The position numbers were made by a program, and so were the translations under genes. The notes beneath the pieces are model-generated. The model saw only the letters and a list, made by a program, of their open reading frames with translations, ran no database searches and was not told the DNA's origin. A DNA stretch of 64,000 nucleotides from Escherichia coli (GTDB taxonomy: Bacteria; Pseudomonadota; Gammaproteobacteria; Enterobacterales; Enterobacteriaceae), in NCBI RefSeq assembly GCF_003019035.1, contig NZ_CP027448.1. One strand, given 5' to 3'. Shown in pieces: positions 710 to 64,000 of this stretch (position 1 is its first letter; each line of letters begins with the position of its first letter).

Positions 710-821
710 ACTTTTCTGGCTCCTGTAAATCCACATCAGAACCGGTTCCCTGCCACCTTATGGCGTGGCCAGCCACAAAATTCCTTAAACGATCAGCAAT
801 CTATCACTCACGCCTGAGATA

Positions 822-8800: not shown

Positions 8801-11073
8801 AGGGAGGCCGGTTCAGCCCGCCCCGGCACAACAACCGTCATCGAATCTTCACTGACGGATGCCACCTGCAGGCGGTCACCGCCGGAGACGCGGAGTCCGG
8901 GAATTTTCCCTGTCACCCTCAGACGCTCGCCGTCTGCCACCGGCATTTTTTCCGGCCGGAACAGCGACCAGCTGCTGTCCAGGGAGGAAATACGCACCAC
9001 CTGCGTTTCGCCCTGCGCATCCCGCAGGGTCAGGCTGTGACTCTGCGCCGTCACCCGATCGATAACATAGAGGTCATGACTGCGTGTCTCCGGGTTCCAC
9101 TGCTCCATCACCATCCCCGGACGGTACATATCCCGCAGATAACGGCTCCGGCTGTCCAGCCAGACCGGTGACAGAGCGGTCATGGTCACCTCCGGGTGTC
9201 CGAGCACGCCCTGTGTTTTCAGCTCACTGCGAACGGCCTGTGTCAGTATGGCCTGTTCCCGTACCCCGCTGACCTGTGCCACGCTCTCTTCTCCGGCTTT
9301 CACGCTGGCCGCAAAATCTCCGGCCAGCCGGGCATAGCGGACATTACGGTCCGGTTCACTGATGATGGTGGCCGGTCGCTGTTCTCCCCCCTGCCAGCGA
9401 TATGTGTTCACCCCGGCATCTTTCATGGCCATCAGTGCACTGCCTGTACCGGTTCGCTGCCCGCTGTCGGTTATCAGGACCTGTACGTTATGACGTGCGG
9501 CACCGTCCAGCAGGGTTAACGTCTCTTTCAGGGAGAGTTTTTCGCCCTGGTCAACGATAACAGTACTGCCCAGCGTGAAGGCCATGCCTTCCAGCAGCTG
9601 ACGACGTCCGGTTATCAGCTCACCGGACAGCCGTTCATCCTGCTTCAGGTTCATCTGCGAGCGACGGTCAGCAGCGATAATCTGCACTTCCCGCCCCTGC
9701 TCCCGGGCCATCATGACCAGTTCAGCCACCCGCTCACGCTGCCCGGCTGCACCGCCCTGCCCGGACACAATGGCCAGCGACGGACGGTCCTGTGCCAGAA
9801 CACTGACGGCATCGCTGTAGCCGGCCGTCCGGGGGACACTTTTCTCCGGATGTACGGTCACCCGGTTCTGTTTCATGATATCGCGACTGAGTGCCCGGAC
9901 TGACAGTTCATCGAGCACATGAATCCCGGACGTGAACAGCCCCTTCTCACGGTCAAGGGGGATGAGTTGCTCACGGCTGATGGCCTCATCGATACCGGCG
10001 CGTGCCCGTTCAATCACACCATTTTCCGGCGGCAGTATACCGACCGTTCTGGCCAGCACGTCCGTGTACGTAAACTGCACTTTTCGTTCACTTAATCCGG
10101 CAATCGCCTGTGTCACCGCCTGCTGCACATCCGGCCCCTCCTGTGAAACAGCCCCGGGCGCCTGCGTGCGGGTCTCCGCACGCTGATCCGCCGCGTCACG
10201 ATATGCCCGGATGTCGAACCCGGTTTCCTTCAGCGTCTGCATCCATTCAGCCATTCTGACTTCAGGATCGACGTGCTGTTTGGATTTTCGCGTATCCAGT
10301 GCCGCCACATCCCGGGATTTCAGCGAGGCGTCCTCCCCGACGGCCTCCCGGATAGTCTGCGAGCGTCCAGAAAAGGCCTCCACCGGTATGCCCAGCATTT
10401 CCCACATACCGTGCTGACCCACCACTTCGGTTTCATAGCCCAGCGCCTCAACCTGCTCTTTCAGTTTTTCCCGGTAGAGCCTGCCAAAGGCAATCTGATT
10501 AGCGTACACATTCTCAATGAACCCCGTTTTCCCCACTTTGTCACTGCTCAGTGTCTTCCATTCGCCGTTATGCTGCGTGACATTAGCCACCACCGCATGC
10601 GTGTGTAACTGTGGTTCCTGATCGCGACTGGTGTCGTGGTTAAACAGTGCCATCACCAGATTACCGGTCAGCACCGTTTCTGACTGTCCGTCCGTCATCA
10701 CCCGTGTGGAGGCCAGCGCCTCCACCTGACGGACAGCAAAATCCACGGCCTGGTTATGTGCTTCAATAAGACGTTTGTCCCCCCCGAGCATGGCCATCAT
10801 GGAGACACTTTTGGGAGCGGAAAAGGTCAGGTCGTAGCCGGGACGATGCCTGTTACGGCCATCCTGCATGCGGCTTAAATCCGCCCCGTCTGGCAACCTG
10901 CCCTCCAGAAGGCGGGTAAAGACATCCTTATCGACACTGCCCTGCAGCCCCAGTTGTTCAGCCCCCTGGCCGGCCCAGCGTTCTCCCATGCTGCCCAGCA
11001 CATAGTAATTATCCTTGTCGGTATAATAGTTCCCGGCACTTCCGGCCGATCTGACCTGCGCAATACTCATCAT
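5803..11073 (-). CDS. traI: TraI relaxase/helicase, 1756 aa
   Basis: From the MM at 11073: MMSIAQVRSAGSAGNYYTDKDNYYVLGSMGERWAG..., HTHAVVANV (3-His relaxase motif), Walker A GYAGVGKT; length equals F TraI. Confidence 0.97.
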   Translation of the reverse strand: MMSIAQVRSAGSAGNYYTDKDNYYVLGSMGERWAGQGAEQLGLQGSVDKDVFTRLLEGRLPDGADLSRMQDGRNRHRPGYDLTFSAPKSVSMMAMLGGDKRLIEAHNQAVDFAVRQVEALASTRVMTDGQSETVLTGNLVMALFNHDTSRDQEPQLHTHAVVANVTQHNGEWKTLSSDKVGKTGFIENVYANQIAFGRLYREKLKEQVEALGYETEVVGQHGMWEMLGIPVEAFSGRSQTIREAVGEDASLKSRDVAALDTRKSKQHVDPEVRMAEWMQTLKETGFDIRAYRDAADQRAETRTQAPGAVSQEGPDVQQAVTQAIAGLSERKVQFTYTDVLARTVGILPPENGVIERARAGIDEAISREQLIPLDREKGLFTSGIHVLDELSVRALSRDIMKQNRVTVHPEKSVPRTAGYSDAVSVLAQDRPSLAIVSGQGGAAGQRERVAELVMMAREQGREVQIIAADRRSQMNLKQDERLSGELITGRRQLLEGMAFTLGSTVIVDQGEKLSLKETLTLLDGAARHNVQVLITDSGQRTGTGSALMAMKDAGVNTYRWQGGEQRPATIISEPDRNVRYARLAGDFAASVKAGEESVAQVSGVREQAILTQAVRSELKTQGVLGHPEVTMTALSPVWLDSRSRYLRDMYRPGMVMEQWNPETRSHDLYVIDRVTAQSHSLTLRDAQGETQVVRISSLDSSWSLFRPEKMPVADGERLRVTGKIPGLRVSGGDRLQVASVSEDSMTVVVPGRAEPASLPVSDSPFTALKLENGWVETPGHSVSDSAKVFASVTQMAMDNATLNGLARSGRDVRLYSSLDETRTAENLARHPSFTVVSEQIKARAGETLLETAISLQKAGLHTPAQQAIHLALPVLESKNLAFSMVDLLTEAKSFAAEGTSFTELGGEINAQIKRGDLLYVDVAKGYGTGLLVSRASYEAEKSILRHILEGKEAVTPLMERVPGGVMESLTSGQRAATRMILETSDRFTVVQGYAGVGKTTQFRAVMSAVNMLPESERPRVVGLGPTHRAVGEMRSAGVDAQTLASFLHGTQLQLRSGETPDFSNTLFLLDESSMVGNTDMARAYALIAAGGGRAVASGDTDQLQAIAPGQPFRLQQTRSAADVAIMKEIVRQTPELREAVYSLINRDVERALSGLESVKPSQVPRQEGAWVPEHSVTEFSHSQEAKLAEAQQKAMQNGEAFPDVPMTLYEAIVRDYTGRTPEAREQTLIVTHLNEDRRVLNSMIHDAREKAGELGKEQVMVPVLNTANIRDGELRRLSTWETHRDALVLVDNVYHRIAGISKGDGLITLQDAEGNTRLISPREAVAEGVTLYTPDTIRVGTGDRMRFTKSDRERGYVANSVWTVTAVSGDSVTLSGGQQTRVIRPGQERAEQHIDLAYAITAHGAQGASETFAIALEGTEGSRKQMAGFESAYVALSRMKQHVQVYTDNRQGWTDAINNAEQKGTAHDVFEPKSDREVMNAERLFSTARELRDVAAGRAVLRQAGLAGGDSPARFIAPGRKYPQPYVALPAFDRNGKSAGIWLNPLTTDDGNGLRGFSGEGRVKGSEDAQFVALQGSRNGESLLADNMQDGVRIARDNPDSGVVVRIAGEGRPWNPGAITGGRVWGDIPDNSVQPGAGNGEPVTAEVLAQRQAEEAIRRETERRADEIVRKMAENKPDLPDGKTELAVREIAGQERDRAAITEREAALPDSVLRESQREREAVREVARENLLQERLQQMERDMVRDLQKEKTLGGD

Positions 11074-15448: not shown

Positions 15449-18270
15449 AATGGCCCCTTCAGTCGTTCCTTTTTACCATCAATCATTTTTTTCACAGCCT
15501 CTCCTGATGGCTCAGGTATTATCTTTTGACTTTCTCGCTCTTCATTATATTTATTATTCTGAGATAATGCTTCTGTTTTATGGTGATTCTGCAGTTCAGA
15601 ATACTGTCCTCTTACAATATTTTCCTCGCCATGTATGCTGTTCTGAGTATCACCTATATTCCCTTTATATTCTGTGACCATATTATCAACCTGATGTTTT
15701 ACATCATTACGGATATTACTGTCCTGTGTTCTTTGATCAATAATGGCCTGATGCCCCTGATGGTCAGCAATAATATTCTGGCTGCCACCACCCGAAGGTA
15801 CGCTCTCCATTCCTTTACCAATATCGCCACGGGATTCACGCCAGGCATTATCAACACCAGGTTGTACCTGTTCTTGCACAAAAGACCATGCCATCGCCCG
15901 ACGGCGTTCTGCAATCTCCGGTGAACTGGTGTTTGTCAGAATAGCTTCTGCATACTGCGGCGCGTGTTTCATCACATACTGTGCAAACTGTTGCGACAGG
16001 TCTTCACTCATCTGCCCACTCATGCTTTCAGTACGGGATGCCATTTCAGCATATTCATGGCTGCGGGTCATATTCGTCGTGTACTGGTCGTAACTCTGTT
16101 TCGCTGAGTTCAGGGCTGCAGACAACTGGTCCACGCGGGAATCGGCATTATTGTCAGTATGGCTTCCGGATTCACTGACTTTGCGACTGGTAAAGTAATC
16201 GCTGGCCTCTTTAAAGTCCTTACTGGCTCTAGCGTCAATATCATGGCGAGCATCATGGGAAGCCCTGCTGCCACTACTGGCTTCATGTGAGTCCAGATCA
16301 CTACCGTCAATACTGGCTCGCCCACCAACCTTAGCGCCAACATCAACACGCACACCAAAAAGGCTGGGCTTTGCATCTAATCCGGCATGAGCATCACCAT
16401 ACAATCCAGCTGATGCAGTCGTACTTCTCGATGCCAGTTCTCTTGTCGCCTGCTCATTACTGATATTATGCGCCTTCGCATAGCTTTCCACTGCACTGCG
16501 CATACGGCTGGCCATCATGGAGTCCTGAGCACTCATCGTGCTGTCAGCACCACCGGTGACAGAATCACTGCTCCCCCGGTTAGAACCAAACTGACTGAGC
16601 GTGTTCCAGGCACTGGCAATACTGCTGCTGAACCCATGCAGGGCACTTTCTGCTCTGTTCGATGCTTCCCGGGCCATTTCCTGTTGTGCCGCCGCAATCT
16701 GACGCGTTGCATTGATGCCGACCGGTAACCGGGACATCGCTCCGCTTGCATCCATCACCATATTACCATCACGGGTCTGTGTGGCGGTTGCGCCACTGCC
16801 GGTCTGGTACATCATCTGACCAAACGACGTGGTGCTGTTGGTGCTCCAGCTGAAGCCGTTCACGTTCTCCGTCTGCATGTTGCCGTAGGAGTAATTACCG
16901 TCAACCACACTGCCTGCTGCACTGGCGGTCGGGCTGATAGCAGAGGAAGCGAAATGGCTGTACACACTGGAAAATCCTGCCCCGAGCCCCCTGACCATCA
17001 TCCAGGATAATGGCGGGATCATCATGGAAAGATACCCGGCAGTGGAAGCCAGATCGGAGTATTTCAGCTGTATCTGTGAAATTTCCGAGAGCACCACCGG
17101 TGCACCATTCTGCTTCGCATAAAATGTCATGGCGCTGTTCAGAATGGCGTACAACATTGGCCATGACTGCAACCACATCAGGGCAAACACATAGCCTTTC
17201 AGGACGGACAGCGTCAGTTTGTTGAAGACAGCCGCCAGTACCAGGAGCGGGAAAATACCGATGGCGATCCCCGTCAGGATGGTCTGCGTCATGGGCAGTG
17301 TCCGCATCGCCACATGACCGATGGAGACATGTGCCAGACGTTGCTTCTCCATCGATGATGTGGTGGCCAGATTCACCAGGCTGGCCGAATCACCATTACG
17401 TGCGGCATAACTGGTGATCCCCTCCTTCAGCGCATTGATGGTGACATTCTGGCGGATGATCTGGCTGGCTGATTTACTTGAGCCATAGAAGTAACTGTAA
17501 CTGTCGCCAATCAGCGTACTGAACAACAGGTTCGGATCAGGGCGTCCACCAAATAGCTGCTGGGCATAATAATGCCATGTTTTTCCGCCACTCTGTGTGT
17601 CCAGATTCAGCTTGTCTTTCAGCGAAACCGACGCGTCCTTACAGGTCACGAAATTATTATTGCTGTCATAAACGCCCCGCAGCGGACTGGGGCGGGAAAA
17701 AATCAGCGTGTAAGGATCAGCGGAGGCCATCAGTTCCTCCAGCGTGTATTTGTGGTTCAGGTAAATATCCCCCATCACGCAGTTCTGCACATAATCCTGG
17801 AAAAGATTGGCGATTTCCGGATTACGGGACAAAAAGTCGGTGCTTTTTGATACCAGTTCTGCGCCAAACAGCATCCCCGTTTTGCTGTAGGTGACACTGT
17901 CCGGTTGCGTGAAGATCATCTCGTAACTGGCCACCATTGCATGCCCGATACGGGTCGTCAGTGAAAGTGGCATCGCCAGTCCGACCGGCACATTATCCAC
18001 CCGGTGAATTTTGACCAGGTCACTGTTATCAATAATCTGCACCGATGTGCGGACATTAACCAGCAGGCTGATAAGCACAAACACGGCCACCCAGCCCAGC
18101 AAATCCATCACGTTGTGCCGCTGTACCCACATTACGGCCACCGCTAGAACAGACAATGTGAGCGCAATTTTTTCAATGGAATCCCACGTCCGGGTCCCCA
18201 TAAAGGCGGCAATGGCATTCAGGTTATTCCGCAACCACTCACCACCGGCAATCACATAAACTTCATTCAC
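15445..18270 (-). CDS. traG: TraG mating-pair stabilisation / pilus assembly protein
   Basis: 941 aa: MNEVYVIAGGEWLRNNLNAIAAFMGT... matches F TraG N-terminus; start overlaps traH stop. Confidence 0.95.
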   Translation of the reverse strand: MNEVYVIAGGEWLRNNLNAIAAFMGTRTWDSIEKIALTLSVLAVAVMWVQRHNVMDLLGWVAVFVLISLLVNVRTSVQIIDNSDLVKIHRVDNVPVGLAMPLSLTTRIGHAMVASYEMIFTQPDSVTYSKTGMLFGAELVSKSTDFLSRNPEIANLFQDYVQNCVMGDIYLNHKYTLEELMASADPYTLIFSRPSPLRGVYDSNNNFVTCKDASVSLKDKLNLDTQSGGKTWHYYAQQLFGGRPDPNLLFSTLIGDSYSYFYGSSKSASQIIRQNVTINALKEGITSYAARNGDSASLVNLATTSSMEKQRLAHVSIGHVAMRTLPMTQTILTGIAIGIFPLLVLAAVFNKLTLSVLKGYVFALMWLQSWPMLYAILNSAMTFYAKQNGAPVVLSEISQIQLKYSDLASTAGYLSMMIPPLSWMMVRGLGAGFSSVYSHFASSAISPTASAAGSVVDGNYSYGNMQTENVNGFSWSTNSTTSFGQMMYQTGSGATATQTRDGNMVMDASGAMSRLPVGINATRQIAAAQQEMAREASNRAESALHGFSSSIASAWNTLSQFGSNRGSSDSVTGGADSTMSAQDSMMASRMRSAVESYAKAHNISNEQATRELASRSTTASAGLYGDAHAGLDAKPSLFGVRVDVGAKVGGRASIDGSDLDSHEASSGSRASHDARHDIDARASKDFKEASDYFTSRKVSESGSHTDNNADSRVDQLSAALNSAKQSYDQYTTNMTRSHEYAEMASRTESMSGQMSEDLSQQFAQYVMKHAPQYAEAILTNTSSPEIAERRRAMAWSFVQEQVQPGVDNAWRESRGDIGKGMESVPSGGGSQNIIADHQGHQAIIDQRTQDSNIRNDVKHQVDNMVTEYKGNIGDTQNSIHGEENIVRGQYSELQNHHKTEALSQNNKYNEERESQKIIPEPSGEAVKKMIDGKKERLKGPL

Positions 18271-35784: not shown

Positions 35785-36471
35785 TTATTTAACACCATAA
35801 AATTCACGAATTATACTTAATAGCGAATCTATTTCTCCTTTATATATACATGACACTCTGAATAAATCAAAGTGTTCAAAAAACTCTTTTATTTTCCGTT
35901 TAACTGGTTTAATTCGATCCTCAGATGCTCTGTCTGTAATACCCAATTCTCTGGCAATTGTTGCGTGACCAACACCCAGCATATAAAAAGAGAAAACAAC
36001 CAATGTTCCTGGAGAAAGATCATTCCATATCGTTAATTGACCAGAAGTATTTGTATTACTTACACTCTGATTTAACGCAAAAAATGGATAATCAGGAAAC
36101 GGATTAATTTGCCATAAAACAACAGATTCGTCATTATAAAAAGAAACATTCTCCATCCTTATCTGATAGATTTCGCCATGAAAATTAAAACGACGACAAA
36201 ATGCAGAGCCATGTCCAAGAGCCTGGCATTCCAGTTCAAGTGATGAAAGAAAAATTTCAACCTGCAGACGTATATAACTCTCTCCGGATAAAGGTTTATC
36301 TTCTCTGGAAAAGAGTTCAATAAAAGCCCCATTGGCATAAAGGATTTTCCGGTTTTTGTTACGGACACAAACCGGAACGGGAGAATTTCTGTAGATATTC
36401 TGAACGTTAAGGATGTATTTATTTACAGATTGACTGTTTAGTGGCCTTTCTCTACGATCCAGCGCACACAT
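35785..36471 (-). CDS. traJ: TraJ transfer activator, R100-like allele
   Basis: ATG at 36471 with GGAGG SD: [40 protein letters not shown]...; C-terminal HTH ([18 protein letters not shown]). Confidence 0.85.
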
Positions 36472-36540
36472 AGGAACCTCCAGTAAGGATTCTATGGACA
36501 GTCGATGCAGGGAGTTACAGCTCCCTGCATCGGCGATTTT
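36464..36540 (+). ncRNA. finP: FinP antisense RNA against the traJ 5' UTR/start
   Basis: Plus strand opposite the traJ RBS has two hairpins: ATAGGAACC..GGATTCTAT over the anti-SD, and GTCGATGCAGGGAG-TTACAG-CTCCCTGCATCGGC followed by GATTTT (ends 36540). The 5' end is approximate. Confidence 0.7.
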
Positions 36541-36660
36541 CAGTTTCAATTTTTAACGTGGTATTAACCACATAATTAATATACTAATTATCTGACGTAT
36601 TGTCATCTTTTTGAATCATAAAAATTCTTATATTTGAACCAACTCAAACTTCATTTTCAT

Positions 36661-40413: not shown

Positions 40414-40572
40414 CTACTTACCGGATTCGTAAGCCATGAAAGCCGCCACCTCCCTGTGTCCGTCTCTGTAACGAATCTCGCACAGCGATTTTCGTGTCAG
40501 ATAAGTGAATATCAACAGTGTGAGACACACGATCAACACACACCAGACAAGGGAACTTCGTGGTAGTTTCAT
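40414..40572 (-). CDS. hok: Hok/FlmA host-killing toxin, 52 aa
   Basis: Manual translation: [52 protein letters not shown]; below the ORF-track length cutoff. Confidence 0.95.
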
Positions 40573-40630
40573 GGCCTTCTTCTCCTTGCGCAAAGCGCGG
40601 TAAGAGGCTATCCTGATGTGGACTAGACAT
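40418..40630 (-). CDS. mok: Mok (modulation of killing) overlapping reading frame, 70 aa
   Basis: 70-aa [29 protein letters not shown]... overlapping hok in another frame, as in R1 parB. Confidence 0.8.
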
Positions 40631-40686
40631 AGGGATGCCTCGTGGTGGTTAATGAAAATTAACTTACTACGGGGCTATCTTCTTTC
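40621..40686 (+). ncRNA. sok: Sok antisense RNA
   Basis: Plus strand: TTGCGC (40586..91), 17 nt, TATCCT (40609..14). The transcript would then start ~40621, covering the mok start (40630) and containing the GGTTAAT-GAAA-ATTAAC hairpin. Ends are approximate. Confidence 0.6.
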
Positions 40687-40851
40687 TGCCACACAACACG
40701 GCAACAAACCACCTTCACGTCATGAGGCAGAAAGCCTCAAGCGCCGGGCACATCATAGCCCATATACCTGCACGCTGACCACACTCACTTTCCCTGAAAA
40801 TAATCCGCTCATTCAGACCGTTCACGGGAAATCCGTGTGATTGTTGCCGCA

Positions 40852-47801: not shown

Positions 47802-48032
47802 TCAGTTAAAAGCGCGTTTCAGTTCGAGTGTGCGGAGCACCTGCCCGAAGGCCGTGTTTTTCATGGCGGGGATGTGTACACCACGCCCCCGGTGAAAACT
47901 CCGGGCTATGTGTCGCCCGAAGGCTTTCAGCACGGGGTCAATTTCCGGCGCGGGGATGTCTTCGCGTCTGAAACGGGGATGACGGCGGGGCTTTACAGCC
48001 GCTGCGGAAGGTGAAACAATACTTACCGTCAT
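47802..48032 (-). CDS. Hypothetical basic protein, 76 aa
   Basis: First ORF downstream of repeat 3; no recognisable motifs. Confidence 0.4.
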   Translation of the reverse strand: MTVSIVSPSAAAVKPRRHPRFRREDIPAPEIDPVLKAFGRHIARSFHRGRGVHIPAMKNTAFGQVLRTLELKRAFN

Positions 48033-48263
48033 AAATGAAACTCCTTATGACTGTTGAATGGAACCGCAGAAACTGCTCGAACAGTTTTTGCGGTGTGGAT
48101 TAAGCAGGTCCTCCCCGGCCTGCTTTTTTCATATCTGCGTCTGACGTTCTCCGGTGTTTTCCTCCTTCTGTTCCTGCGTTCTCATTACCTGCCAGCCGGA
48201 TGACTGACAGAACAAATAAATGCGTATTGCCGGAGCCTGAAATAAATCCTGATTTTTAAAGAA

Positions 48264-53126: not shown

Positions 53127-54053
53127 TCATCCGCCATAATGCGCCACATTGTCGACTATCCACGCAGGTCCGGTGACCTCCGGCAGCTCATCGTCATCTG
53201 TCGGGGAAGACCATTCCTGTTCCCCCCACAGAACATCAACAAGCTCTCCACGCTCATATCGCTGCCAGCCACAGAAATTGCAGCCCTGTTCGGCATACCA
53301 GTGCTCCAGCGTGCAGCCGAAACGGCGGCTTAATTCTGCAACAACGTCGCTTTCCGGCTGACACCACGGCGTGTCAAAATCCACCTGAATGAAGTTTTCT
53401 CCCTGACGGCCGATATTCAGGTCATACCCACAAGGCCACTTCACGCCATACCGTTCCGTATACCAGTGATATGCAGAAGGAACACCGTTCAGAACACCAC
53501 CGTTAAAGCCGTTCACTTCAACATCCAGGCGGGTCGGCAGAACCGTCAGCAGGTCAAACGGCATGGTTTTTTCCGGCACTACGTTGTCACACAGACGGTT
53601 CCACCACACCGATACATCCTCGTTACTCCAGAAGCCACACCAGTCACCTCTTTTTGCGGTGAAAAGTGCGGTGATGGTATCCCTGACATCGTCCGGTAAT
53701 CCTTCCCAGCGACGCTGTCCAGTACCGCTCTGCAGCCAGAGTTCATGCAGCATCAGGCAGTTTTGCTCATCCAGCAGTACACCGTCCTGCAGATATGTCA
53801 GCCAGCGGGTGAACGCGATATTCTCCGGCGATACAACGCCACGCCCGGCAGCCGTCAGTCCGGGGCATGGTTCAAACCGCACATCTTCAGTGGTCTGCAG
53901 AAGTCCGGCACTTCCGGCCAGAAACAGCTGAATACCTTCATTTGTGGCGCGGCGATAAAGCGGTGTGACTGCGCCGCTGGCCAGTCGTTTAATCTCAGCG
54001 ATCTGTGCCGGTTCACCAGAAAAATACATACGATTCGAGCACCAGTTTGGCAT
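53127..54053 (-). CDS. Conserved leading-region protein, 308 aa (recalled as DUF1281-like)
   Basis: ATG 54053 with GAGGAG SD: MPNWCSNRMYFSGEPAQIAEIKRLASGAV...; the upstream extension in the track is unlikely. Confidence 0.6.
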   Translation of the reverse strand: MPNWCSNRMYFSGEPAQIAEIKRLASGAVTPLYRRATNEGIQLFLAGSAGLLQTTEDVRFEPCPGLTAAGRGVVSPENIAFTRWLTYLQDGVLLDEQNCLMLHELWLQSGTGQRRWEGLPDDVRDTITALFTAKRGDWCGFWSNEDVSVWWNRLCDNVVPEKTMPFDLLTVLPTRLDVEVNGFNGGVLNGVPSAYHWYTERYGVKWPCGYDLNIGRQGENFIQVDFDTPWCQPESDVVAELSRRFGCTLEHWYAEQGCNFCGWQRYERGELVDVLWGEQEWSSPTDDDELPEVTGPAWIVDNVAHYGG

Positions 54054-54407
54054 GGGAATTCTCCTCTCACATGCGGCCTCCATCAGGCCGTGCCGCACCT
54101 GTAACCGGGCGACCGCATACGAATGCAGGTGCGGCCCCGAAGCCGCAGCGCGTGGAGGAGGAACGACGAAACGTGACCGGGTGAGGAGGCCGGCGACAGC
54201 GACACACTTGCATCGGATGCAGCCCAGTTAACGTGCCGGCACGGCCTGGGTAACCAGGTATTTTGTCCACAGAACCGTGCACAAAATGCTGTGGATAAGC
54301 TGGACACAGCAGCCCACAGCAGGCATACAGCCACACCCTCAGAGAATTGAACGTTTTTTAGCCGCAACAATGACATTTGACTGTATGTGGATTCAGTTAT
54401 TAGAATG

Positions 54408-54446: not shown

Positions 54447-54695
54447 ATGATCCGCATTGAAATTCTTTTCGACCGCCAGAGCACAAAAAACCTCAAATCA
54501 GGCACACTTCAGGCGCTACAGAATGAAATCGAACAACGACTGAAACCACACTACCCGGAAATCTGGCTGCGTATAGACCAGGGCAGCGCCCCGTCTGTAT
54601 CTGTCACAGGAGCCCGCAACGACAAGGATAAAGAACGTATCCTGTCTCTGCTGGAAGAAATCTGGCAGGACGACAGCTGGCTGCCTGCAGCATGA
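54447..54695 (+). CDS. impC: ImpC, DinI-family protein, 82 aa
   Basis: ATG 54447: MIRIEILFDRQSTKNLKSGTLQALQNEIEQRLKPHYPEIWLRIDQGSA... (DinI-like pattern); overlaps impA start (ATGA). Confidence 0.8.
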   Translation: MIRIEILFDRQSTKNLKSGTLQALQNEIEQRLKPHYPEIWLRIDQGSAPSVSVTGARNDKDKERILSLLEEIWQDDSWLPAA

Positions 54696-55129
54696 GTACC
54701 GTTTATCACCGTCCGGCTGACCCTTCAGGCGATGACAGTTACGTGCGACCGTTGTTTGCCGATCGTTGCCAGGCCGGTTTTCCTTCGCCTGCCACTGATT
54801 ATGCTGAGCAGGAACTGGATCTGAACAGCTATTGCATCAGCAGACCTGCAGCCACCTTCTTTCTGCGCGCCAGCGGTGAATCGATGAACCAGGCTGACGT
54901 GCAGAATGGTGATCTGCTGGTAGTGGACAGGGCCGAAAAACCACAACACGGGGACATCGTTATCGCTGAGATCGACGGTGAGTTCACCGTCAAACGACTG
55001 CTGTTGCGCCCACGCCCGGCACTGGAGCCGGTTTCAGACAGCCCGGAGTTCCGCACACTGTATCCGGAAAACATCTGTATTTTTGGTGTTGTCACTCACG
55101 TGATACACAGGACGCGGGAGTTACGCTGA
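54692..55129 (+). CDS. impA: ImpA, UmuD-family S24 self-cleaving protein, 145 aa
   Basis: ...GFPSPATDY..., catalytic Ser in RASGESM and Lys in FTVKRL. Confidence 0.9.
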   Translation: MSTVYHRPADPSGDDSYVRPLFADRCQAGFPSPATDYAEQELDLNSYCISRPAATFFLRASGESMNQADVQNGDLLVVDRAEKPQHGDIVIAEIDGEFTVKRLLLRPRPALEPVSDSPEFRTLYPENICIFGVVTHVIHRTRELR

Positions 55130-55256: not shown

Positions 55257-55301
55257 TTATGTGGAATTGCAAGTAACGTTGTAGTGCTGATGAGGAAAAT
55301 T

Positions 55302-57530
55302 TTATCTGACTACAATATTGATATCGTTTTCCGCAACAATCAGCATCACGGCAGGTAAACCCTCCACACGCATTTTCTGGTGTAATTTTTTGATTAAATT
55401 ATCATCTTCATTACTGGCTTTTGCGGAAAAGCCTTGTGGATGGGAGTGCCATTCGCCAACATAATCGACAACACGAGCGGTCAACTGGTGAACCCGTTCT
55501 AATGCTTCTTGTTGTCCCGCTTCTCCCCGGACAAAGGAGGCTGGAGAGGATTTACTGTCGATAGGTTCAGGGAGCACGTCAACCAGAATAATCGTTTTGT
55601 TCTTAAAATCTGTTATGCCAACAATTGCACCTCCTGTTTCATTAGGCAGTGCCTGTAAGCGGGTGTGCTGCAATTTTTGCGCTAAGCCCTGGTCATATTT
55701 AACAACCCATTCGCCAGAAATTATAGATACCACGGAATAGAGTTCAATTTCATGTGCATCCATCGCGCCTGATATTTCATCAGATACCCAGATACACAAT
55801 CGAGCATTTCCTTTGAGTGCAGTCTGGCGAAGTTGGCGTGAGAGGATACCGGCATGAACATGAATACATTCACTGGACATACGTACAGAAATATCCCGAC
55901 ATCCACCACCGACCCAACGATCGCCATAATTGTGCTGTAGGTGAGTACTTCCCCACTCACTGCTCAAAATTGCCCGATAGTATTGCCCCTCAATTGCATC
56001 AATTCGGCATTGTCTGTCTACATCCTCCATTAACATCACGCTAGACTGACCCGATGGAGTCAGAAACAGGCTAACTATTCTGGGTATATCATCTTTTAAC
56101 ACTAGAGTCCTCGGCACCTCAAAGGTGGTACTGACATCCACAACTAAGTCTGCCTCATTCATTGCCTTAGCAATATCATCATCGTCATCAAGAATACTTT
56201 TATGGATCGCCTGAGGGAGGGGCTCATGCGGATAAATAGATTTGGCAATATGCTGAATAATATGGGGTTTTGAGACTCCAATATGACAATCAAACCCAAT
56301 ATGGCGAGACAAATTATGTGGAAGAAGCCGATCTGGATCAATAAAAGTCCATGTCCCCCACCCCATTCGAATCCAAATATCAGCCAATGTACTACCAAGA
56401 GCGCCAACTCCAGCTAAAATACCTCGAAAAGCTGCACTCTCTGAATCAACAGCAGATATGTCTCTCGCATGTGTGGCCTTCATAGCCGAACGTATTTCAA
56501 CTGGTAAAAGCGGTAATTGTCGCCACTTGGTACTAATTGATCCGCCAAGAAGCCGTACGCGATGCTGTACTCCTCGCTCATTTTTTGGCGCCAGCATATC
56601 TAGTGCAGTGGCAAGTTCACCGAGTGAACTTTGCACAACATAGCCCATCACATCCGTACGTTCTGTTTCTCCGTTTCTTAGACGGGGGATCCAAAGCAGG
56701 ATAAGTAAGCCTTCTCCTTTACCAGACGTTGGGCGGATACCATCACTTGGTATTGCTTCATAAACAGCGTCAGTTAGTGGTTTTAGGAGCTCACTTCCCC
56801 ATTCATTAAGTTGTTCTTCTAATTTTCCCAGATTATCCGGGTATGTAGCCACCGTAGAAACATCGACAGGAGGAACAGCAATAGTTAATAAGCGAAATGG
56901 CTTAACGCTTGAGGTATCTTGTTCTGGTACAGCCCTTAAAATAATCGGTCGCCCCTCACTGACCATCTGGAGACTGAGCTTATTGTCAGTCGCGTGATGA
57001 TAATCGGGGTAATTGGCTGGCAAAATGAGCTGATAGGGACTCAAATAAAAAAGTTGCTCAAGTGGCTGATCTTCTCGATGTAGATGCAGTTCGGCCGATT
57101 CTCTAAGCCACCAAAAAATGCGCTCAAGGAATCTCTCGGGGGTCCAACTGCGCTCAACTGCGCTCCAGGAGGCCTCATATAGGCAAAGAATTCGTGGTGA
57201 GCCAGGTTCTCCAGCATGCTGGTGAGAAAGAACAGGGAAATCTTTCCGCAATGCATGAACCAAGATAGGTATGCTTGATTTGGGATTGACCTCAATAGCC
57301 AATCGTTCTTTACGACGAATACGGGCTTGATTACCAGAAGCCACAGTCCCATCAGCAGCATCAATGATTAGATATTCCGAGCGGTTATCATTTATTTCAG
57401 AAAATCGTAATTCTCTGACTGTGACGTAAGGATGATTCTCGCATGCTTTAAGCAGCGAAATCGTTTGTGGATAAAGGCTATCGCGCCCCGATGAATCGAG
57501 GCGCTCACCCAATTCGAAATATTCGATCAT
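55302..57530 (-). CDS. E2-like / E1 (ThiF) adenylation / JAB deubiquitinase-like triple-fusion protein, 742 aa (Cap2+Cap3-like)
   Basis: E2-like LSHQHAGEPGSPRILC(116)LYE. E1 GILAGVGALGS (G374-x-G-x-x-G379), FIDPDRLLPHNLSRH, ADLVVDVSTTFE, GGGC(544)RD. JAB NE(631)TGGAIVG and EWH(695)SH(697)PQGFSAKAS(706)NED(709). Confidence 0.8.
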   Translation of the reverse strand: MIEYFELGERLDSSGRDSLYPQTISLLKACENHPYVTVRELRFSEINDNRSEYLIIDAADGTVASGNQARIRRKERLAIEVNPKSSIPILVHALRKDFPVLSHQHAGEPGSPRILCLYEASWSAVERSWTPERFLERIFWWLRESAELHLHREDQPLEQLFYLSPYQLILPANYPDYHHATDNKLSLQMVSEGRPIILRAVPEQDTSSVKPFRLLTIAVPPVDVSTVATYPDNLGKLEEQLNEWGSELLKPLTDAVYEAIPSDGIRPTSGKGEGLLILLWIPRLRNGETERTDVMGYVVQSSLGELATALDMLAPKNERGVQHRVRLLGGSISTKWRQLPLLPVEIRSAMKATHARDISAVDSESAAFRGILAGVGALGSTLADIWIRMGWGTWTFIDPDRLLPHNLSRHIGFDCHIGVSKPHIIQHIAKSIYPHEPLPQAIHKSILDDDDDIAKAMNEADLVVDVSTTFEVPRTLVLKDDIPRIVSLFLTPSGQSSVMLMEDVDRQCRIDAIEGQYYRAILSSEWGSTHLQHNYGDRWVGGGCRDISVRMSSECIHVHAGILSRQLRQTALKGNARLCIWVSDEISGAMDAHEIELYSVVSIISGEWVVKYDQGLAQKLQHTRLQALPNETGGAIVGITDFKNKTIILVDVLPEPIDSKSSPASFVRGEAGQQEALERVHQLTARVVDYVGEWHSHPQGFSAKASNEDDNLIKKLHQKMRVEGLPAVMLIVAENDINIVVR

Positions 57531-58708
57531 TGGTTTGATACACCTGCCCTAGGAGCGGCGGCCGTAGCAGCACTTACCGCAGCTGAAACAGCACCAACAA
57601 TAGCGGGTATTAACTTCCCGTCTCCAGCCACTTCAAATTCAAGGAACGCTGTATCTTTAAGATCCCCCGTACAGCTAAACCAACCATCAACACTGTCCAG
57701 AATATCCTCATACTCACGCTTAGCCCGGATGCACGGTGGATCATAATCATCATCAAGTATCTGATTGCTACTCGATACAATTGTTGCCCCGGAACGAGCC
57801 TGACCTAAAGCATTACGGGCCGCATCACAAACTTCAGCATTCTCCCCCCATTGTGACCAGCTATCATAGGAAAGTGAATGCCATGAACAATGATGCGGTG
57901 TGAGGAGAAGATCATATTCTAGTGCCTCAGCATTGCTTTTGTAACGATCCCATAATCGCTCCCAGATGAGAACTTCTGCGTCTCCACCTAATAGAAAGTG
58001 CATAGGATTACGGGAATATGCAGAGGGCAGTATTTTCATGTTCATGATGATACTGGATTCGTTTTTAGAAAGAGCTTCTTCCAAATATTCATCATCTTCA
58101 TGTGGTGCGGGCGCCAGAAGCTGTGCGGAGAACACTTCTGAAATTTGCCCGTCAATTCTGGTGAATGTATCTCCAGCTTTGATAAGAATGGCACTCAGAT
58201 CATCTGTTTTGCCATTAATATCTTCACCCATGATAAGGATTCGATTACCGCTAGATGCATAACCATGTTCCCGCCAGTATTTTACTCGGCGCCGTGCTTC
58301 TGTATTAAATGCCTGAGCATCTTCGCAAAGTGTGTGACTTTTGGAACGACGCCGAAAAATCAATGGTGATGACCACAATTCTCGAATAATGATACGCTTT
58401 TCTGAACGTTTCACATCGTCATCTGGATAATCTTCAGGACGGCCCAGCCAGAAATGTTTACGCAGGCCACCGCAATGATCCTGATCGGGATGACTGAGCA
58501 TAAAAACATCAATAAAGGGACGATCTTTTTCATCATACTTCAATCTGCTACGTAATGCCGAGGCAACATCAGGTGTGTCATCATTGGGGTTATCAGCAGC
58601 AGAGCGAATATGTACATCAATCAGAATGGATGTGCCCCGGGTGTCGGCCAAACGTACCAGTGTCATATCACCGTTGCCGACTTGGAAAAAAGTAATTTTG
58701 GCTGCCAT
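57527..58708 (-). CDS. Metallo-beta-lactamase-fold hydrolase, ComEC/Rec2-like subtype, 393 aa, with Ala/Gly-rich C-terminal tail
   Basis: FFQVGNGDMTLV, LSHPDQDHCGG, LLGGDAE and LTPHHCS follow the ComEC-type MBL motif order. The AGGAG SD favours ATG at 58708 over 58714. The stop overlaps the next gene's start (ATGA at 57527..57530). Confidence 0.78.
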   Translation of the reverse strand: MAAKITFFQVGNGDMTLVRLADTRGTSILIDVHIRSAADNPNDDTPDVASALRSRLKYDEKDRPFIDVFMLSHPDQDHCGGLRKHFWLGRPEDYPDDDVKRSEKRIIIRELWSSPLIFRRRSKSHTLCEDAQAFNTEARRRVKYWREHGYASSGNRILIMGEDINGKTDDLSAILIKAGDTFTRIDGQISEVFSAQLLAPAPHEDDEYLEEALSKNESSIIMNMKILPSAYSRNPMHFLLGGDAEVLIWERLWDRYKSNAEALEYDLLLTPHHCSWHSLSYDSWSQWGENAEVCDAARNALGQARSGATIVSSSNQILDDDYDPPCIRAKREYEDILDSVDGWFSCTGDLKDTAFLEFEVAGDGKLIPAIVGAVSAAVSAATAAAPRAGVSNQ

Positions 58709-58767
58709 CGACATCTCCTTTAGGGATACGAAAGATTGAGGTTAAGAGCATCTATTGCTAAGATACA

Positions 58768-58795
58768 TCTAGTAATTATACTAGTCTAGTAATTA
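58768..58795. promoter_or_regulatory. Candidate operator in the divergent promoter region
   Basis: Direct repeats TCTAGTAATTA at 58768..58778 and 58785..58795, enclosing the palindrome TACTAG-T-CTAGTA (58779..58791). Confidence 0.4.
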
Positions 58796-58842
58796 GACGT
58801 ATATTTTGGACTTAAATTGTAAGTACAGGAAATTATTGATAA

Positions 58843-59697
58843 ATGAGTGATAAAATGGTGAGAACTGGTCATTGGAGCCAAGAAAGACGGCTTGAATTCA
58901 TCGATTTTCGCCTACTGTGGGAAGGTCGGCTTAACCGTGCAGATCTCACGACATTTTTCAGAATTTCAGTTCCGCAAGCCTCATTAGATTTGGCAAAATA
59001 TCAAGAAGTTGCGCCAAACAACATGGTGTATGATCGAACTCAGAAGGCTTACATTACGACTCCTGATTTCAAACCTGTTTTTACAAGCTTTGACAGTAAT
59101 CATTACCTGAATGAACTACTTGGGCGAGAAAATGAAATAGTGGATCCTGATGATAGTTTCATTGGGTGGGTACCCCCGGTAGCCAGCCTTCCTCTCCCTG
59201 CCAGGAAAGTACAACCTGAAATATTGATTGATTTAATTCGAGCCATGCAAAGAAAACAGGCTTTGGTTGTTGATTATCGCTCAATGACTAATGAACCAGC
59301 AATTCGTACGCTATACCCAACAGCATTTGCACATGATGGGCATCGGTGGCATGTTCGTGCTTATTGTTTTAAGTCTACAATGTTTAAAGATTTTGTTCTT
59401 GGTAGGTTTTTTAAAATCGTTGAATTTGTTTCCCCACCGACATCAATTCCACAAGATGTGGACTGGAATACATTTATTGACGTGGTAATAGGTCCAAACC
59501 CTAACTACGATATGAATAAACGGCTATCTATTGAACATGATTATCAAATGGTAAAAGGAGAAGCAAAAATCCACATACGTAAAGCGCAATTATATTATCT
59601 TAATCGTCGATTAAATTTGGATGTAAATAGCGATGGTTCAATAGATGACAAACAGCAGATCATCATGCTCAGAATAGACGAGTCTAAAACCTATTAA
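58843..59697 (+). CDS. wHTH-WYL-domain transcriptional regulator (CapW/BrxR-like), 284 aa
   Basis: N-terminal RRLEFIDFRLLWEGRLNRADLTTFFRISVPQASLDLAKYQ (wHTH); WYL-type core ALVVDYRSMTNEPAIRTLYPTAFAHDGHRWHVRAYCFKSTMFKDFVLGRF. Confidence 0.78.
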   Translation: MSDKMVRTGHWSQERRLEFIDFRLLWEGRLNRADLTTFFRISVPQASLDLAKYQEVAPNNMVYDRTQKAYITTPDFKPVFTSFDSNHYLNELLGRENEIVDPDDSFIGWVPPVASLPLPARKVQPEILIDLIRAMQRKQALVVDYRSMTNEPAIRTLYPTAFAHDGHRWHVRAYCFKSTMFKDFVLGRFFKIVEFVSPPTSIPQDVDWNTFIDVVIGPNPNYDMNKRLSIEHDYQMVKGEAKIHIRKAQLYYLNRRLNLDVNSDGSIDDKQQIIMLRIDESKTY

Positions 59698-59709
59698 GGG
59701 AATATTTAT

Positions 59710-60228
59710 ATGAATGCGAATGATGTTAACAAACGGAATAAAGAATGGATGATTGTAATCATTATTATCTATCTTTTTATTTTGTTATGTATAGCAACAT
59801 ACGCTATTGGGGCTATGTCTCTAGGTTGGTTACCAACACCTTACGCACCATTAAGGGTGCCACTGATGTGCGGAGCAATTGCCTATATAGGTGGTTGTTT
59901 ATATTGTTTTCGTGCAATTTACCTCAATAAATGTATTAGAAAACAATGGGATCCAGATTGGCATGTATGGTATTTCATTCGCCCACTGACCAGTACAATC
60001 GCAGGTGCTATCAGTTATTTATTCCTTAAGGCGGGGTTGTTAGTTTTGGAGTCTAGTTCCAATGTAGGAGCTAGTGAAATGGGTTTCTTTGCGCTGGCAT
60101 TTATTGCTGGTTTTAACGTCGATAAATTTGTCGCAAAAATCGAGGAAGTTGCAAAGGCTGTCTGGGGTATTGAAAAAACTCGAAGCTCGACTAATAATGA
60201 TGCGAAAAATTCGGAAAAAAAAGAATAG
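59710..60228 (+). CDS. Four-TM membrane protein with charged C-terminal helix, 172 aa
   Basis: Hydrophobic segments ~13-35, 50-70, 85-108 and 122-137; starts 13 nt after the WYL gene stop; no motif recognised. Confidence 0.6.
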   Translation: MNANDVNKRNKEWMIVIIIIYLFILLCIATYAIGAMSLGWLPTPYAPLRVPLMCGAIAYIGGCLYCFRAIYLNKCIRKQWDPDWHVWYFIRPLTSTIAGAISYLFLKAGLLVLESSSNVGASEMGFFALAFIAGFNVDKFVAKIEEVAKAVWGIEKTRSSTNNDAKNSEKKE

Positions 60229-60274
60229 TCTGGATGTATTTAAATTAAAATGAAATTAGTGCTGAGCTATTTTA

Positions 60275-62486
60275 TTACTTTCTCTTATTTCCTGGGGTCG
60301 CGCCCCCAGTGAGCTTATTCAAAAGTTTGTCCACTGCCTGTATATCGTTTTCTACAGCGGCTTGTTCGTCATCAGTCAAAGGGATTTCCTGCATCAGCTT
60401 GAGTAGATTCTGGCGACCTTCCAAGTATTGTGCTTCAGATGAAGATTTTGGCATATAAAATGAGCATTTTGCACATGCCATCCGATGGGGGCATTGCTCA
60501 AAAAAGTCATAAGTACAGAAACCGTGTCCAAGATCATAATAACGCCATGGCTTCCCGGATGCTACCAGCCCTTCAGCTATCGCGTCTTGATCAATGAGAA
60601 CTGAAACCATGCGGCGATTACATTCAAAGTAACCAGCTTTATCCAGTGATCCTGCCAACCTCGTCGGTGTAATTTCGACATAATGTCGGGTAGATTCAGG
60701 TGAAGAATGCCCCAACCATTTCTGTAGCTCAAAAATATCAAGTGGTTCCCTGGCGTTGTAAAGCTGACTGGCTATAGTGGCTCTTGCCCGATGGCTGGTG
60801 ATTTTACCTCTGGCATCCTGCTCAGGTATACCAGCCTTTCTGCATAGCAAAGGGATTAGCGAATTATTAATATAACTACTGTGTACCCGTTTCCCCCTGT
60901 GCATGAACAAAAAACGGACGCTTTCACCTGTTTTAGAATCTTCCTGGAGGGGGTGGGGGTTACGAACAAGTTCCCATTGTTCGATATATTCCCCGATAAT
61001 AGGGTCAACTGGCTTTGTGAATGCCGCGTAAGTCTTGCTAACGGGTACATCTATCAGACAGATACGGGATACATTATTTTCTTCTGGCTGTTGCCAGCGG
61101 ATACACCCACACTGCATACGTAGAATTTCATCACGTCTGAGGCCTCCAAATAACCAGAGAACGCTGAGTGCTCTGACCATCTCCAGTGGATAAAAATAAG
61201 GATATGCAACACAGTTTGGTAAATCCGACTCCTGCAGGTTCTGTCCGGCGTGAAGTAATTTACACCACATATCATCGGCCACAATACGAGGCTCTGGTCC
61301 AACCAGGGAAGTCAAGCTACGCGGTGCCCTGAAAACTCTTTCTGGGCTGAATCGTACAGGTATCCATCCCCATTCCTGCAAGTCATGAAAGAAAGTTCTA
61401 ATATGACCCAACATCCTGGCTCTCGCTGCAGGCATCATCATTTTGCCACGACGGTCACGATACATGCCCCCAGGGGTTGCCCATTCACCAACTTTCATTC
61501 TACAAGCGGCGGTCACCCAGACGATCGCGGTGTCCCGTGTCCAATCAGATGGTGACAGACAGGTTGGATAGCACTCAGCTAACCAGCTGACCACACTTTA
61601 GCAAAACGTACCAACCGGACAAAATAGATGAAGGGCGAAGTACTGAGGTAGCACGCCACCGTTTGCACCATACCAGCCATTTAGTTGGTACATCAGCTGT
61701 TGCATTATATTCGCGGGGAGGACGGCGACGTTGTGTTATTCGGTAATCAACCCCTTCCTCAATAGTCCCTGATGCAGCCAGTATACGCGATAGAGTAGCT
61801 GAGGCTTCCCGGAGGGAATCCGGGCACGTTGCAGCAATCTGTTGCAACGTGGTCACGGTGATATGGTCTAGTTGAGCATCCCTTTGCAGAAGCATTGCCA
61901 TACACATGGCATTTCTGATGCCGTTGTTCCGACTATCACGAGGCACATATCCCAGAACCTGCATCATATTGTCAAGCTGGCTGACGGCAAAATCGGTGCT
62001 CTGTCGGCCAAAAACCTTAAGACAGAGCCGATATTGATAGAATATGCCACAGTGTTCCAGCCGCTCAAACCCACATAGCAACCATGCTAACGCTATAACA
62101 TATTGCCGACAGTTGCCGCTGGCTCCAAACCGTCGACGAAATTCCCCTTCGCTGTTGCAAATAACTTCTAACCACTCTTCTTGTGTCCAGGCCCAGTATG
62201 TTTTCCGGATGCGCTGCATCTCTAGGACTATATCGTGAATAGATGAATTGTAGGGGGCCTTGGCCGCATGCATTTTTGTTAGCGTGTCGCGTAGTGGTAA
62301 AAGAAGGCGGGAAAGCCGTTTTTGTATATCAGGTGACCAGTTTTTACCTCCTTGCTGGAAGTGGTCGACCAATGTATCCAGTGCCGCAAGCTCGCTTTCA
62401 GAGATCTCCGATCGGGTATCCCAAAGTAGGGCAGGAAGACTGAGTGATGTTGTCGGACAAGGCGCTGTATGTTCAGATTGCATCAT
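60275..62486 (-). pseudogene. Large tyrosine recombinase (Tn554 TnpB-like) split by a 1-nt frameshift into 303-aa N-terminal and 439-aa catalytic ORFs
   Basis: ORF 61575..62486 has no catalytic residues and ends ...GWYVLLKCGQLVS*. ORF 60275..61594 (track start is a GTG) continues ...WLAECYP... and carries GGLRRDEI, SHRARATIASQL, GHSSPESTRHYVE (R-H-R-Y) and a CPHRMACAKC motif. The frames overlap at 61575..61594. ATG 62486 overlaps the upstream stop (ATGATG). Confidence 0.65.
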
Positions 62487-63535
62487 GGAGAAGGATCCTG
62501 CTGTTGTAGTACAGTAAGGCGGCAAGTATGCAAGGATGCGACCGTGTAATTGAAACGACTACTCAGATCACGTGCGCTGAGATGAATATAGAGCAGAGTT
62601 GACTGGATACGACGGTGGCCAGCGAATGCAGCAATTTCGTGGATGTCCCACCCCACGCGTGCCAGTTCTGTCAGACAAAGATGTCGGAATGTGTGGGTGC
62701 TGATGAGTGGAAGATCAGCCTTAATAGCTAAACCGCGAACTACTTTTGACCAAGTCCAGTTGCTAATAGGTTCTGCCCGATTACGCGGAGAGCGTGAGAG
62801 AAACAACGGACCGCGAGATGAGCTTAGCATACGACGTTCAGTGAGCCATGCTGTGTAGAGTTCCCCCGTCACAGGAGAATAGGGCACAACCCGACCAAAG
62901 CGGTTTTTGGTATGCTCAGCGCGCACAGTGAGCAAGCGTTGAGAAGGGTCAATATCTCCGGTAGCTACTGTGCAAAGTTCTTCTCTGCGTAATCCGCAGT
63001 CGTAGGCCAGTGCCAGCATAAAACGAGTACGGATATCAGCTTGTCCGGCTACCTCAAGAAAGCGCAACCACTCCGCATCATCCGGGATCCACGGTAGCCG
63101 CCGCTGCAACGGCACTATACCAGCTTTTCCTTTCCCTCCGTTTTTCCAGACACCTCGTCTGACAGGATTTCTCTCCCGTATCCCCTCCTCACAAAGCCAA
63201 TAGTTGTACAGTCGTACCACCGTCAGCCGGTGGCGGATAGTGGCAGCTGCCAGCTGGCGACCGGTATGCAGGCTGCGGACATAGAGTGCGACCGTATCAC
63301 GTCCAGCGACAGCAGCCGTCAGGGCAACAGAGTGACAGAAAGCGAGCCAGTCATTGACGCCACGGGCATAGGCATCAATGGTGTTTGGAGCACACAGCAG
63401 GTCCTCCTGCAGGCACACCCACCGGCAAGCTGAAGGATCGGCCGACAGAAAAGGCAGCGCATCCAGCAGTTTCTTGTGCACAGCATCCCCCTTTTCGATA
63501 ACAGAATGTGTTGTATGAAATATAGTCAATTCCAA
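62483..63535 (-). CDS. Tyrosine recombinase (TnpA/XerD-like), up to 350 aa
   Basis: Catalytic set GLRREEL, HTFRHLCLT, GHRRIQSTLLYIH. The track start (63535) is a TTG only 8 nt from the element end; GTG at 63481 with a GGGGGA SD is a plausible alternative. Confidence 0.85.
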   Translation of the reverse strand: MELTIFHTTHSVIEKGDAVHKKLLDALPFLSADPSACRWVCLQEDLLCAPNTIDAYARGVNDWLAFCHSVALTAAVAGRDTVALYVRSLHTGRQLAAATIRHRLTVVRLYNYWLCEEGIRERNPVRRGVWKNGGKGKAGIVPLQRRLPWIPDDAEWLRFLEVAGQADIRTRFMLALAYDCGLRREELCTVATGDIDPSQRLLTVRAEHTKNRFGRVVPYSPVTGELYTAWLTERRMLSSSRGPLFLSRSPRNRAEPISNWTWSKVVRGLAIKADLPLISTHTFRHLCLTELARVGWDIHEIAAFAGHRRIQSTLLYIHLSARDLSSRFNYTVASLHTCRLTVLQQQDPSP

Positions 63536-63543
63536 ATAACATA

Positions 63544-64000
63544 GAAGCGAAGCGGCTGGGCATAAAAATGGGAGTACCGTGGTTTCAGCTGAAGTCGGTG
63601 AAATTTCCGGAGCCGGTCATCGCCTTCTCCAGTAATTACGCGCTATACGCATCGATGTCGAACAGGGTTATGTCTCATCTCGAGGAGCTGGCGCCGGGCG
63701 TGGAGCAGTACAGTATTGATGAGATGTTTCTCGACGTGCGGGGTATTGACAGCTGCATCGATTTCGAGGATTTCGGCCGGCAGCTGCGTGAACACGTCAG
63801 GAACGGGACTGGCCTGACTATCGGTGTCGGAATGGGGCTAACCAAAACGCTGGCAAAGTCAGCACAGTGGGCTTCCAAAGAGTGGCCACAGTTTGGTGGC
63901 GTGCTGGCGTTAACGCCAGGCAATATCCGCCGTACGGAAAAACTGCTGTCACTGCAGCCGGTGGAGGAAATCTGGGGGGTAGGCAGCAGGATATCAAAGA
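63544..64000 (+). pseudogene. impB: impB 3' portion (from codon 43), continues beyond window end
   Basis: Open frame EAKRLGIKMGVPWFQLKSVKFPEPVIAFSSNYALYASMSNRVMSHLEELAPGVEQYSIDEMFLDVRG...GVGMGLTKTLAKSAQWASK...IWGVGSRISK, colinear with UmuC residues ~43-195. Confidence 0.9.

Follow-up and report, generated by a model that had tools for sequence, protein, structure and literature searches.

The window analysed here, a 64,000-nucleotide stretch of Escherichia coli DNA (contig NZ_CP027448.1 of assembly GCF_003019035.1), carries on its minus strand, at positions 55302..57530, an intact open reading frame (ATG start, stop codon 55302..55304) for a protein of 742 amino acids that joins an E2-like domain, a linker, an E1 adenylation domain and a JAB metallopeptidase domain in one chain. 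We are highly confident that this gene is cap2_3 of the 6A-MBL anti-phage system, and that it forms a two-gene core operon with a translationally coupled gene encoding a metallo-beta-lactamase (MBL)-fold protein. Domain identity, family membership, residue conservation, a motif in the tail of the MBL protein and the linkage of the two genes are all observed directly. RefSeq names cap2_3 a 'ThiF family adenylyltransferase' and the MBL gene either a 'hypothetical protein' or a 'ComEC/Rec2 family competence protein'; these names cover what is a complete, apparently intact 6A-MBL phage-defence system.

The combination of E2, E1 and JAB domains in a single 742-residue chain, already proposed in a preliminary description made from the sequence alone, is far above chance. 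The Pfam families Prok-E2_A (residues 67-174, 3.9e-22), ThiF (residues 369-472, 4.7e-11) and Prok-JAB (residues 617-734, 1e-9) all exceed their gathering cutoffs, and the PADLOC JAB model matches the JAB part at 6.7e-23. The NCBIfam equivalog NF058523 ("anti-phage 6A-MBL system cap2_3 protein") is matched at 2e-198 (661.1 bits, cutoff 320), the match spanning residues 66-731 of the protein and positions 3-665 of 665 in the profile, and its companion NF058524 ("anti-phage 6A-MBL system MBL-fold protein") matches the neighbouring gene at 1.4e-127 (425.6 bits, cutoff 220). This MBL gene (57527..58708) lies upstream on the same strand, and its stop codon overlaps the start of cap2_3 as ATGA. It encodes 393 amino acids when read from its second ATG: the mechanically called open reading frame begins at the ATG at 58714 (395 amino acids), and homologues and RefSeq begin two codons later, with MAAKITFF, at 58708. 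Residue numbers of the MBL protein given below follow the 395-residue frame.

The preliminary description had regarded such a fusion as unusual, a judgement that does not hold. An E2-E1-JAB fusion with an MBL neighbour is what defines operon type 6a in Table 1 of Iyer, Burroughs and Aravind 2006 (PMC1779556), the row to which the name 6A-MBL refers; cap2_3 relatives are encoded in at least 421 species-level genomes, and curated NCBIfam equivalogs describe the family. The triple fusion was already known, and the gene of the window is an ordinary member of a named, curated family, not a discovery. More recent publications cite 6A-MBL as a validated defence: in a 2026 review, van den Berg et al. 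2024 are credited with showing its anti-phage activity in Pseudomonas aeruginosa, whose copies of cap2_3 are 59-65% identical to that of the window, and a 2025 preprint counts 6A-MBL among known jumbo-phage defences. The literature groups the MBL pathway with type II CBASS (antiphage signalling based on cyclic oligonucleotides) and Pycsar; literature searches for a mechanistic paper on this pathway found none.

Residue conservation was measured in 75 full-length homologues from many phyla that are 27-65% identical to the window protein (median 35%), and gene linkage in 80 species-level loci kept from the genomes with a cap2_3 relative (Proteobacteria, Cyanobacteria, Bacteroidota, Planctomycetota, Acidobacteriota, Chloroflexota, Nitrospirota and others). 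An initial alignment of 24 homologues at 40-91% identity had left every residue picked out by the preliminary description invariant. In the E2-like domain (approximately residues 1-175, 57006..57530, with the Prok-E2_A part at 57009..57332; all domains and residues of cap2_3 are on the minus strand), H103 (57222..57224) and the catalytic C116, whose codon had been placed correctly at 57183..57185, are kept in all 75 homologues. H105, listed beside them as part of the same motif, is specific to the clade of the window protein; 64 of the 75 have N at this position, and the family motif is therefore H-x-N...C, closer still to the HPN motif of E2 enzymes. The E1 adenylation domain (approximately residues 346-606, 55713..56495), supported by the ThiF match, a profile match to Cap2 and MoeB, and the fold, contains the GxGxxG motif at G374-G379 (correctly located at 56394..56411), D398-P-D400 (56331..56339), N406, R409, D465 (56136..56138) and a candidate crossover-loop cysteine, C544 (55899..55901). 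Nine of its residues (G374, G376, G379, D398, D400, H405, N406, K421 and C544) are invariant, and four more (R409, D465, R545 and D546) are conserved in 74 of 75; of the 'DxxD' motif in the preliminary description, D465 alone is conserved and D461 is variable. The JAB/JAMM metallopeptidase domain (approximately residues 607-742, 55305..55712), supported by Pfam, PADLOC and the fold match to Cap3, is likewise invariant in E631 (55638..55640), H695-S696-H697 (55440..55448), S706 (55413..55415) and D709 (55404..55406). The JAMM motif running from H695 to D709 is thus present in every homologue, and only its coordinates need correction, from 55401..55448, one codon too many, to 55404..55448.

An AlphaFold2 model of the protein (predicted local distance difference test, pLDDT, 82.7) has four folded parts: the three domains expected and, between E2 and E1, an ordered, beta-rich central linker domain (approximately residues 176-345, 56496..57005) that had gone unmentioned in the preliminary description and has counterparts in Cap2 and Atg7. 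Only three loops are of low confidence (152-161, 402-412 and 537-549), and the last of these, which bears C544, has a pLDDT below 50, as expected of a mobile loop. In a Foldseek search against the PDB the first match is full-length Cap2 (7to3_A, E=6.7e-23, 649 columns); the Cap2 E1 domain matches with a template-modelling (TM) score of 0.83, Cap3 (9ild_A) matches the JAB part with a TM score of 0.73 at 22% identity, and UBA5, ThiF, MoeB, Atg7 and BubCD are also recovered. Profile and fold searches together therefore find all three anticipated folds, through Cap2, Cap3, MoeB, ThiF and Atg7, and bear out the anatomy first suggested, a Cap2-like order of E2 before E1 in a protein about the size of Cap2 plus Cap3. 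At the level of sequence, the full-length profile aligns to Cap2 only at residues 368-479 (Cap2 378-488), and to MoeB as well.

The partner protein has a metal motif (H75-P-D77-x-D79-H80, D245 and H274-H275), and its AlphaFold2 model (pLDDT 85.3, predicted TM score 0.87) finds its best fold match in the beta-lactamase-like domain of ComEC (9ic4, E=1.3e-13), followed by the phosphodiesterase Pce, RNase J and beta-CASP nucleases. From these fold matches, the MBL protein is most likely a ComEC-like metal-dependent phosphodiesterase or nuclease. The model ends in a disordered, alanine-rich C-terminal tail (residues 373-395, 57530..57598, minus strand, pLDDT below 50), in which P388-R-A-G391 (57542..57553, minus strand) is followed by a four-residue extension, VSNQ (57530..57541, minus strand). 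We propose that the tail comprises a conjugation end and a propeptide. PRAG followed by 0-7 variable residues is found in 106 of 115 close MBL homologues. Across phyla, all 72 full-length MBL genes that lie upstream of cap2_3 have [RK][AVM]G among their final 14 residues, including those with an identity of 23-30%; 51 of these 72 end exactly on the glycine and the others have 1-5 extra residues, the window copy belonging to a clade with 2-4 residues after it. Such a pattern is, as read from sequence, the signature of a putative ubiquitin-like conjugation end with an optional propeptide. The gene itself lies directly upstream of cap2_3, on the same strand, in 76 of the 80 loci, and three of the four remaining loci are truncated or have no upstream sequence. 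An apparent in-frame MBL-cap2_3 fusion in two Nostoc loci was rejected, a TAG stop codon standing directly after PRAG. The RAG end, the short propeptide of this clade and the strict MBL-cap2_3 linkage add support for the MBL effector itself as the ubiquitin-like substrate, and the earlier suggestion that the neighbouring MBL protein is the substrate of the fusion is likely and well supported by these comparative data.

In type II CBASS, Cap2 adenylates and conjugates the C-terminus of the CD-NTase by way of E1 residue C548 and E2 residue C109, and Cap3 cuts after the residue at the C-terminus. This precedent and the conserved end of the MBL tail together favour a sequence of trimming, adenylation, thioester transfer and ligation, of which we infer every chemical step, as we do which way regulation runs, the target and what the MBL enzyme acts on. 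The JAB domain would trim the VSNQ extension and expose the carboxylate of Gly391, which the E1 domain would then adenylate using ATP. The MBL protein would move as a thioester onto C544 of the crossover loop, pass from there to C116 of the E2 domain and end as an isopeptide on a target or on itself, a linkage that the same JAB domain could reverse. Intramolecular control of such a cycle, which the preliminary description drew from the fusion, is a conjecture. The expected effect of conjugation is to prime the MBL effector or to fix its location, in the way that Cap2 acts on CD-NTases in type II CBASS, and a divergently transcribed BrxR-type WYL regulator probably controls expression.

Several points weigh against this reading. 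The proposed equivalences of C544 to Cap2 C548 and of C116 to Cap2 C109 rest on invariance and topology and stay inferential because profiles align to Cap2 only over residues 368-479; a profile of residues 480-600 finds no real relative in the PDB, and C544, invariant and approximately 170 residues past GxGxxG, sits in a low-confidence loop outside any residue-level alignment to Cap2. Nuclease activity of the MBL protein is deduced from fold neighbours at 14-16% identity, a phosphorylcholine esterase among them. Phage defence by 6A-MBL comes to us through citing papers on the P. aeruginosa systems and not on this copy, and the 2023 version of PADLOC contains no 6A-MBL model, matching the protein only with its CBASS E1-E2 and JAB models.

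The alternative that survives best concerns the role of the JAB domain, which could be mainly an obligatory maturation protease that removes the MBL propeptide; it would then be a positive regulator, and a picture of writer plus eraser would be incomplete. The MBL protein of this clade has 2-4 residues past the conserved glycine whose removal would be needed before adenylation, and JAB peptidases of related systems cleave pre-proteins. However, 51 of 72 MBL homologues already end on glycine, yet the JAB domain is intact with all its catalytic residues, so that maturation cannot be its sole role, and we regard this alternative as possible but not the better account. That the plasmid copy is a decaying passenger without function is improbable. 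In sister plasmids IS1 or IS3 has indeed interrupted this gene and shortened the insert that carries it, and 6A-MBL seems often to be inactivated on these plasmids, but both genes of the window are full length, keep every conserved residue and are 99-100% identical to copies in approximately 20 complete E. coli records.

A third alternative, in which the protein is a Cap2-Cap3 fusion of type II CBASS (or of Pycsar or Thoeris) that conjugates a nucleotide cyclase, draws on the fact that the nearest solved structures are Cap2 and Cap3 and that PADLOC matches the protein best with its CBASS models for E1-E2 and for JAB, two of the former themselves extending into a JAB part. We consider it very improbable. 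The 8.3-kb element that carries the genes, all of whose coding space is accounted for, has no CD-NTase, cyclase, TIR or CBASS effector gene, and neither the CD-NTase nor the cyclic-nucleotide-activated effector expected of a type II CBASS operon was found within the element or its flanks; the NCBIfam Cap3 model gives 29.6 bits against a cutoff of 200, and the conserved upstream partner, in 76 of 80 loci, is an MBL protein rather than a nucleotide cyclase. A ThiF/MoeB-type adenylyltransferase of sulfur-carrier or cofactor biosynthesis, as the RefSeq name and the Pfam ThiF match with weak matches to ThiF, MoeB and TcdA models might suggest, is almost certainly wrong, since those models reach 20-35 bits against equivalog cutoffs of 152-437, no gene for a ThiS/MoaD-like carrier is present, the same protein also contains an E2 and a JAB domain whose catalytic residues are invariant, and its gene is on a mobile element on a plasmid.

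The regulator that probably controls the 6A-MBL operon is a BrxR/CapW-type WYL protein (58843..59697, plus strand; Pfam WYL 3.9e-8, PADLOC WYL), divergent from the operon and 67% identical to the neighbour of 6A-MBL in P. aeruginosa, which carries WHD_BrxR, WYL and BrxR_CTD domains. The divergent arrangement recurs in three other contexts, L006 and L008 included, and in 11 of the 80 loci. Between the MBL and WYL genes is a region of 134 bp (58709..58842) in which TCTAGTAATTA occurs twice in direct orientation (58768..58778 and 58785..58795), with an ACTAGT palindrome between the copies; it has one promoter-like match, at 58755..58782 on the plus strand, although the region overall is no richer in such matches than shuffled sequence. 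We infer from these features a candidate BrxR operator and promoter region.

Downstream of the WYL gene, a 172-amino-acid protein with four predicted membrane helices (59710..60228, plus strand) has no Pfam match, is 76% identical to the corresponding neighbour in P. aeruginosa and has 563 homologues. Its distribution is suggestive of an accessory role for this gene in the Pseudomonas/Enterobacterales clade of 6A-MBL, where it is found after brxR or directly after cap2_3, the latter in two Pseudomonas species (L023 and L024, about 9263..9757). In the Betaproteobacteria Cupriavidus and Allopusillimonas (L014, 6001..7478, and L016, 6001..7623) a copy of approximately 60% identity directly precedes a different, stand-alone MBL protein of ComEC-like type, and neither cap2_3 nor brxR lies near it; a further locus of the membrane protein is at 3235..3810 of L002. 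It is conceivable, if rather doubtful, that the 172-residue protein is a partner of the MBL enzyme (an anchor, a co-effector or the conjugation target) and that the JAB domain first matures the VSNQ propeptide in cis; neither idea was found in the available literature. The genes 3' of brxR in L006 and L008, examined as possible homologues of the 172-residue protein, were rejected as not homologous. In L006 (1043..2788), a Pseudomonas-like metagenome, the brxR gene next to 6A-MBL is followed by an unrelated membrane protein of 261 amino acids and a second ComEC-like MBL protein of 298 amino acids, one more pairing of a membrane protein with an MBL protein adjacent to 6A-MBL.

The four genes of the 6A-MBL region share an 8.29-kb insert (about 55257..63545) with a three-gene recombinase block consisting of a 439-residue tyrosine recombinase, a 316-residue protein that matches nothing in Pfam, even at E=10, and a 350-residue tyrosine recombinase. 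It interrupts umuC/impB of the plasmid behind codon 42, and AGA stands at each of the two junctions. A search for a nearly identical plasmid whose umuC is unbroken found none; the insertion site was defined by one of the genes, 77-79% identical, that alone span the junction. At the element ends are the imperfect inverted repeats TTATGTGGAATTG and CAATTCCAAATAA, which match at 12 of 13 nucleotides, were read by eye and could be due to chance; they are absent from the longest repeats in a repeat search. The insert looks like a recombinase-trio type element with defence cargo. Two genes of the leading region of the plasmid lie just outside it, one for a umuD-like S24 peptidase, which is intact (54692..55129), and one with DUF1281 (53127..54098); on plasmid pSE11-2 a DinI-like gene precedes the umuD-like gene. 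The break in umuC presumably leaves the plasmid's polymerase V operon without function.

The window belongs to a conjugative plasmid of the F type that has an addiction module of hok/sok type, as follows from Rfam matches to CopA-like RNA, antisense-traG, FinP/traJ 5' UTR, sok and AS-pc01 (at 624..713, 17466..17551, 36465..36573, 40570..40746 and 48027..48128). The operon is 99.9-100% identical to that of pSE11-2 and similar plasmids, and 30 out of 5426 complete E. coli genomes carry it. A widespread 580-residue variant, P0026 (L011, 5001..6743; a cluster of 894 sequences), is a cap2_3 at the same umuC site in which IS1 has inserted, truncating the gene at approximately residue 163 and deleting the MBL gene and brxR as well; H6 NZ_CP011136.1 was noted with it. 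Plasmid VR50 has an IS3 insertion in cap2_3.

Compared with other 6A-MBL systems, the window copy differs in nothing essential: the same E2-E1-JAB protein directly follows the MBL gene, and the BrxR and membrane-protein neighbours are those of P. aeruginosa. What sets it apart is its location on an F-type E. coli plasmid, in a recombinase element inserted in umuC, and its membership of the clade in which the MBL protein continues for a few residues past the conserved glycine. Type II CBASS, as represented by Cap2-CdnD of Enterobacter cloacae (PDB 7TO3), shows the same domain order, homologous folds and a linker that in Cap2 is an Atg7-N-like domain, and its substrate is, as proposed for 6A-MBL, the operon's own enzyme, presented through a flexible tail that ends in a small residue at which a JAB peptidase cleaves. 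Sequence identity is only 12-14%, however, and in cap2_3 the JAB domain is fused instead of separate, the predicted substrate is an MBL hydrolase and not a CD-NTase, and the operon has no second-messenger effector gene. The cap2_3 family also keeps H-x-N before the E2 cysteine, which Cap2 reportedly lacks.

Among eukaryotic enzymes the closest parallel in our comparison is Atg7 (with Atg3/Atg10), a homodimer-type E1 whose crossover loop bears the cysteine, as is proposed for cap2_3, and whose N-terminal domain recruits E2; published work places the 6a/6b E1 proteins as the closest bacterial relatives of Atg7. Unlike Atg7, cap2_3 has a fused E2 and an appended JAB domain and no beta-grasp ubiquitin-like substrate. 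The Bil and Bub operons share the E1, E2 and JAB chemistry and occur in phage-defence or related islands, and BubCD was matched weakly, but these operons have a ubiquitin-like protein of their own and keep E1 and E2 as distinct proteins, and Bub uses serine, not cysteine; a separate beta-grasp ubiquitin-like gene, which such a system would have, is absent from the seven genes that fill the insert. The MBL partner, finally, shares the HPDxDH metal motif and the fold of the ComEC nuclease domain at 14% identity, but unlike ComEC it is a soluble, stand-alone protein with extra helical insertions and the putative conjugation tail.

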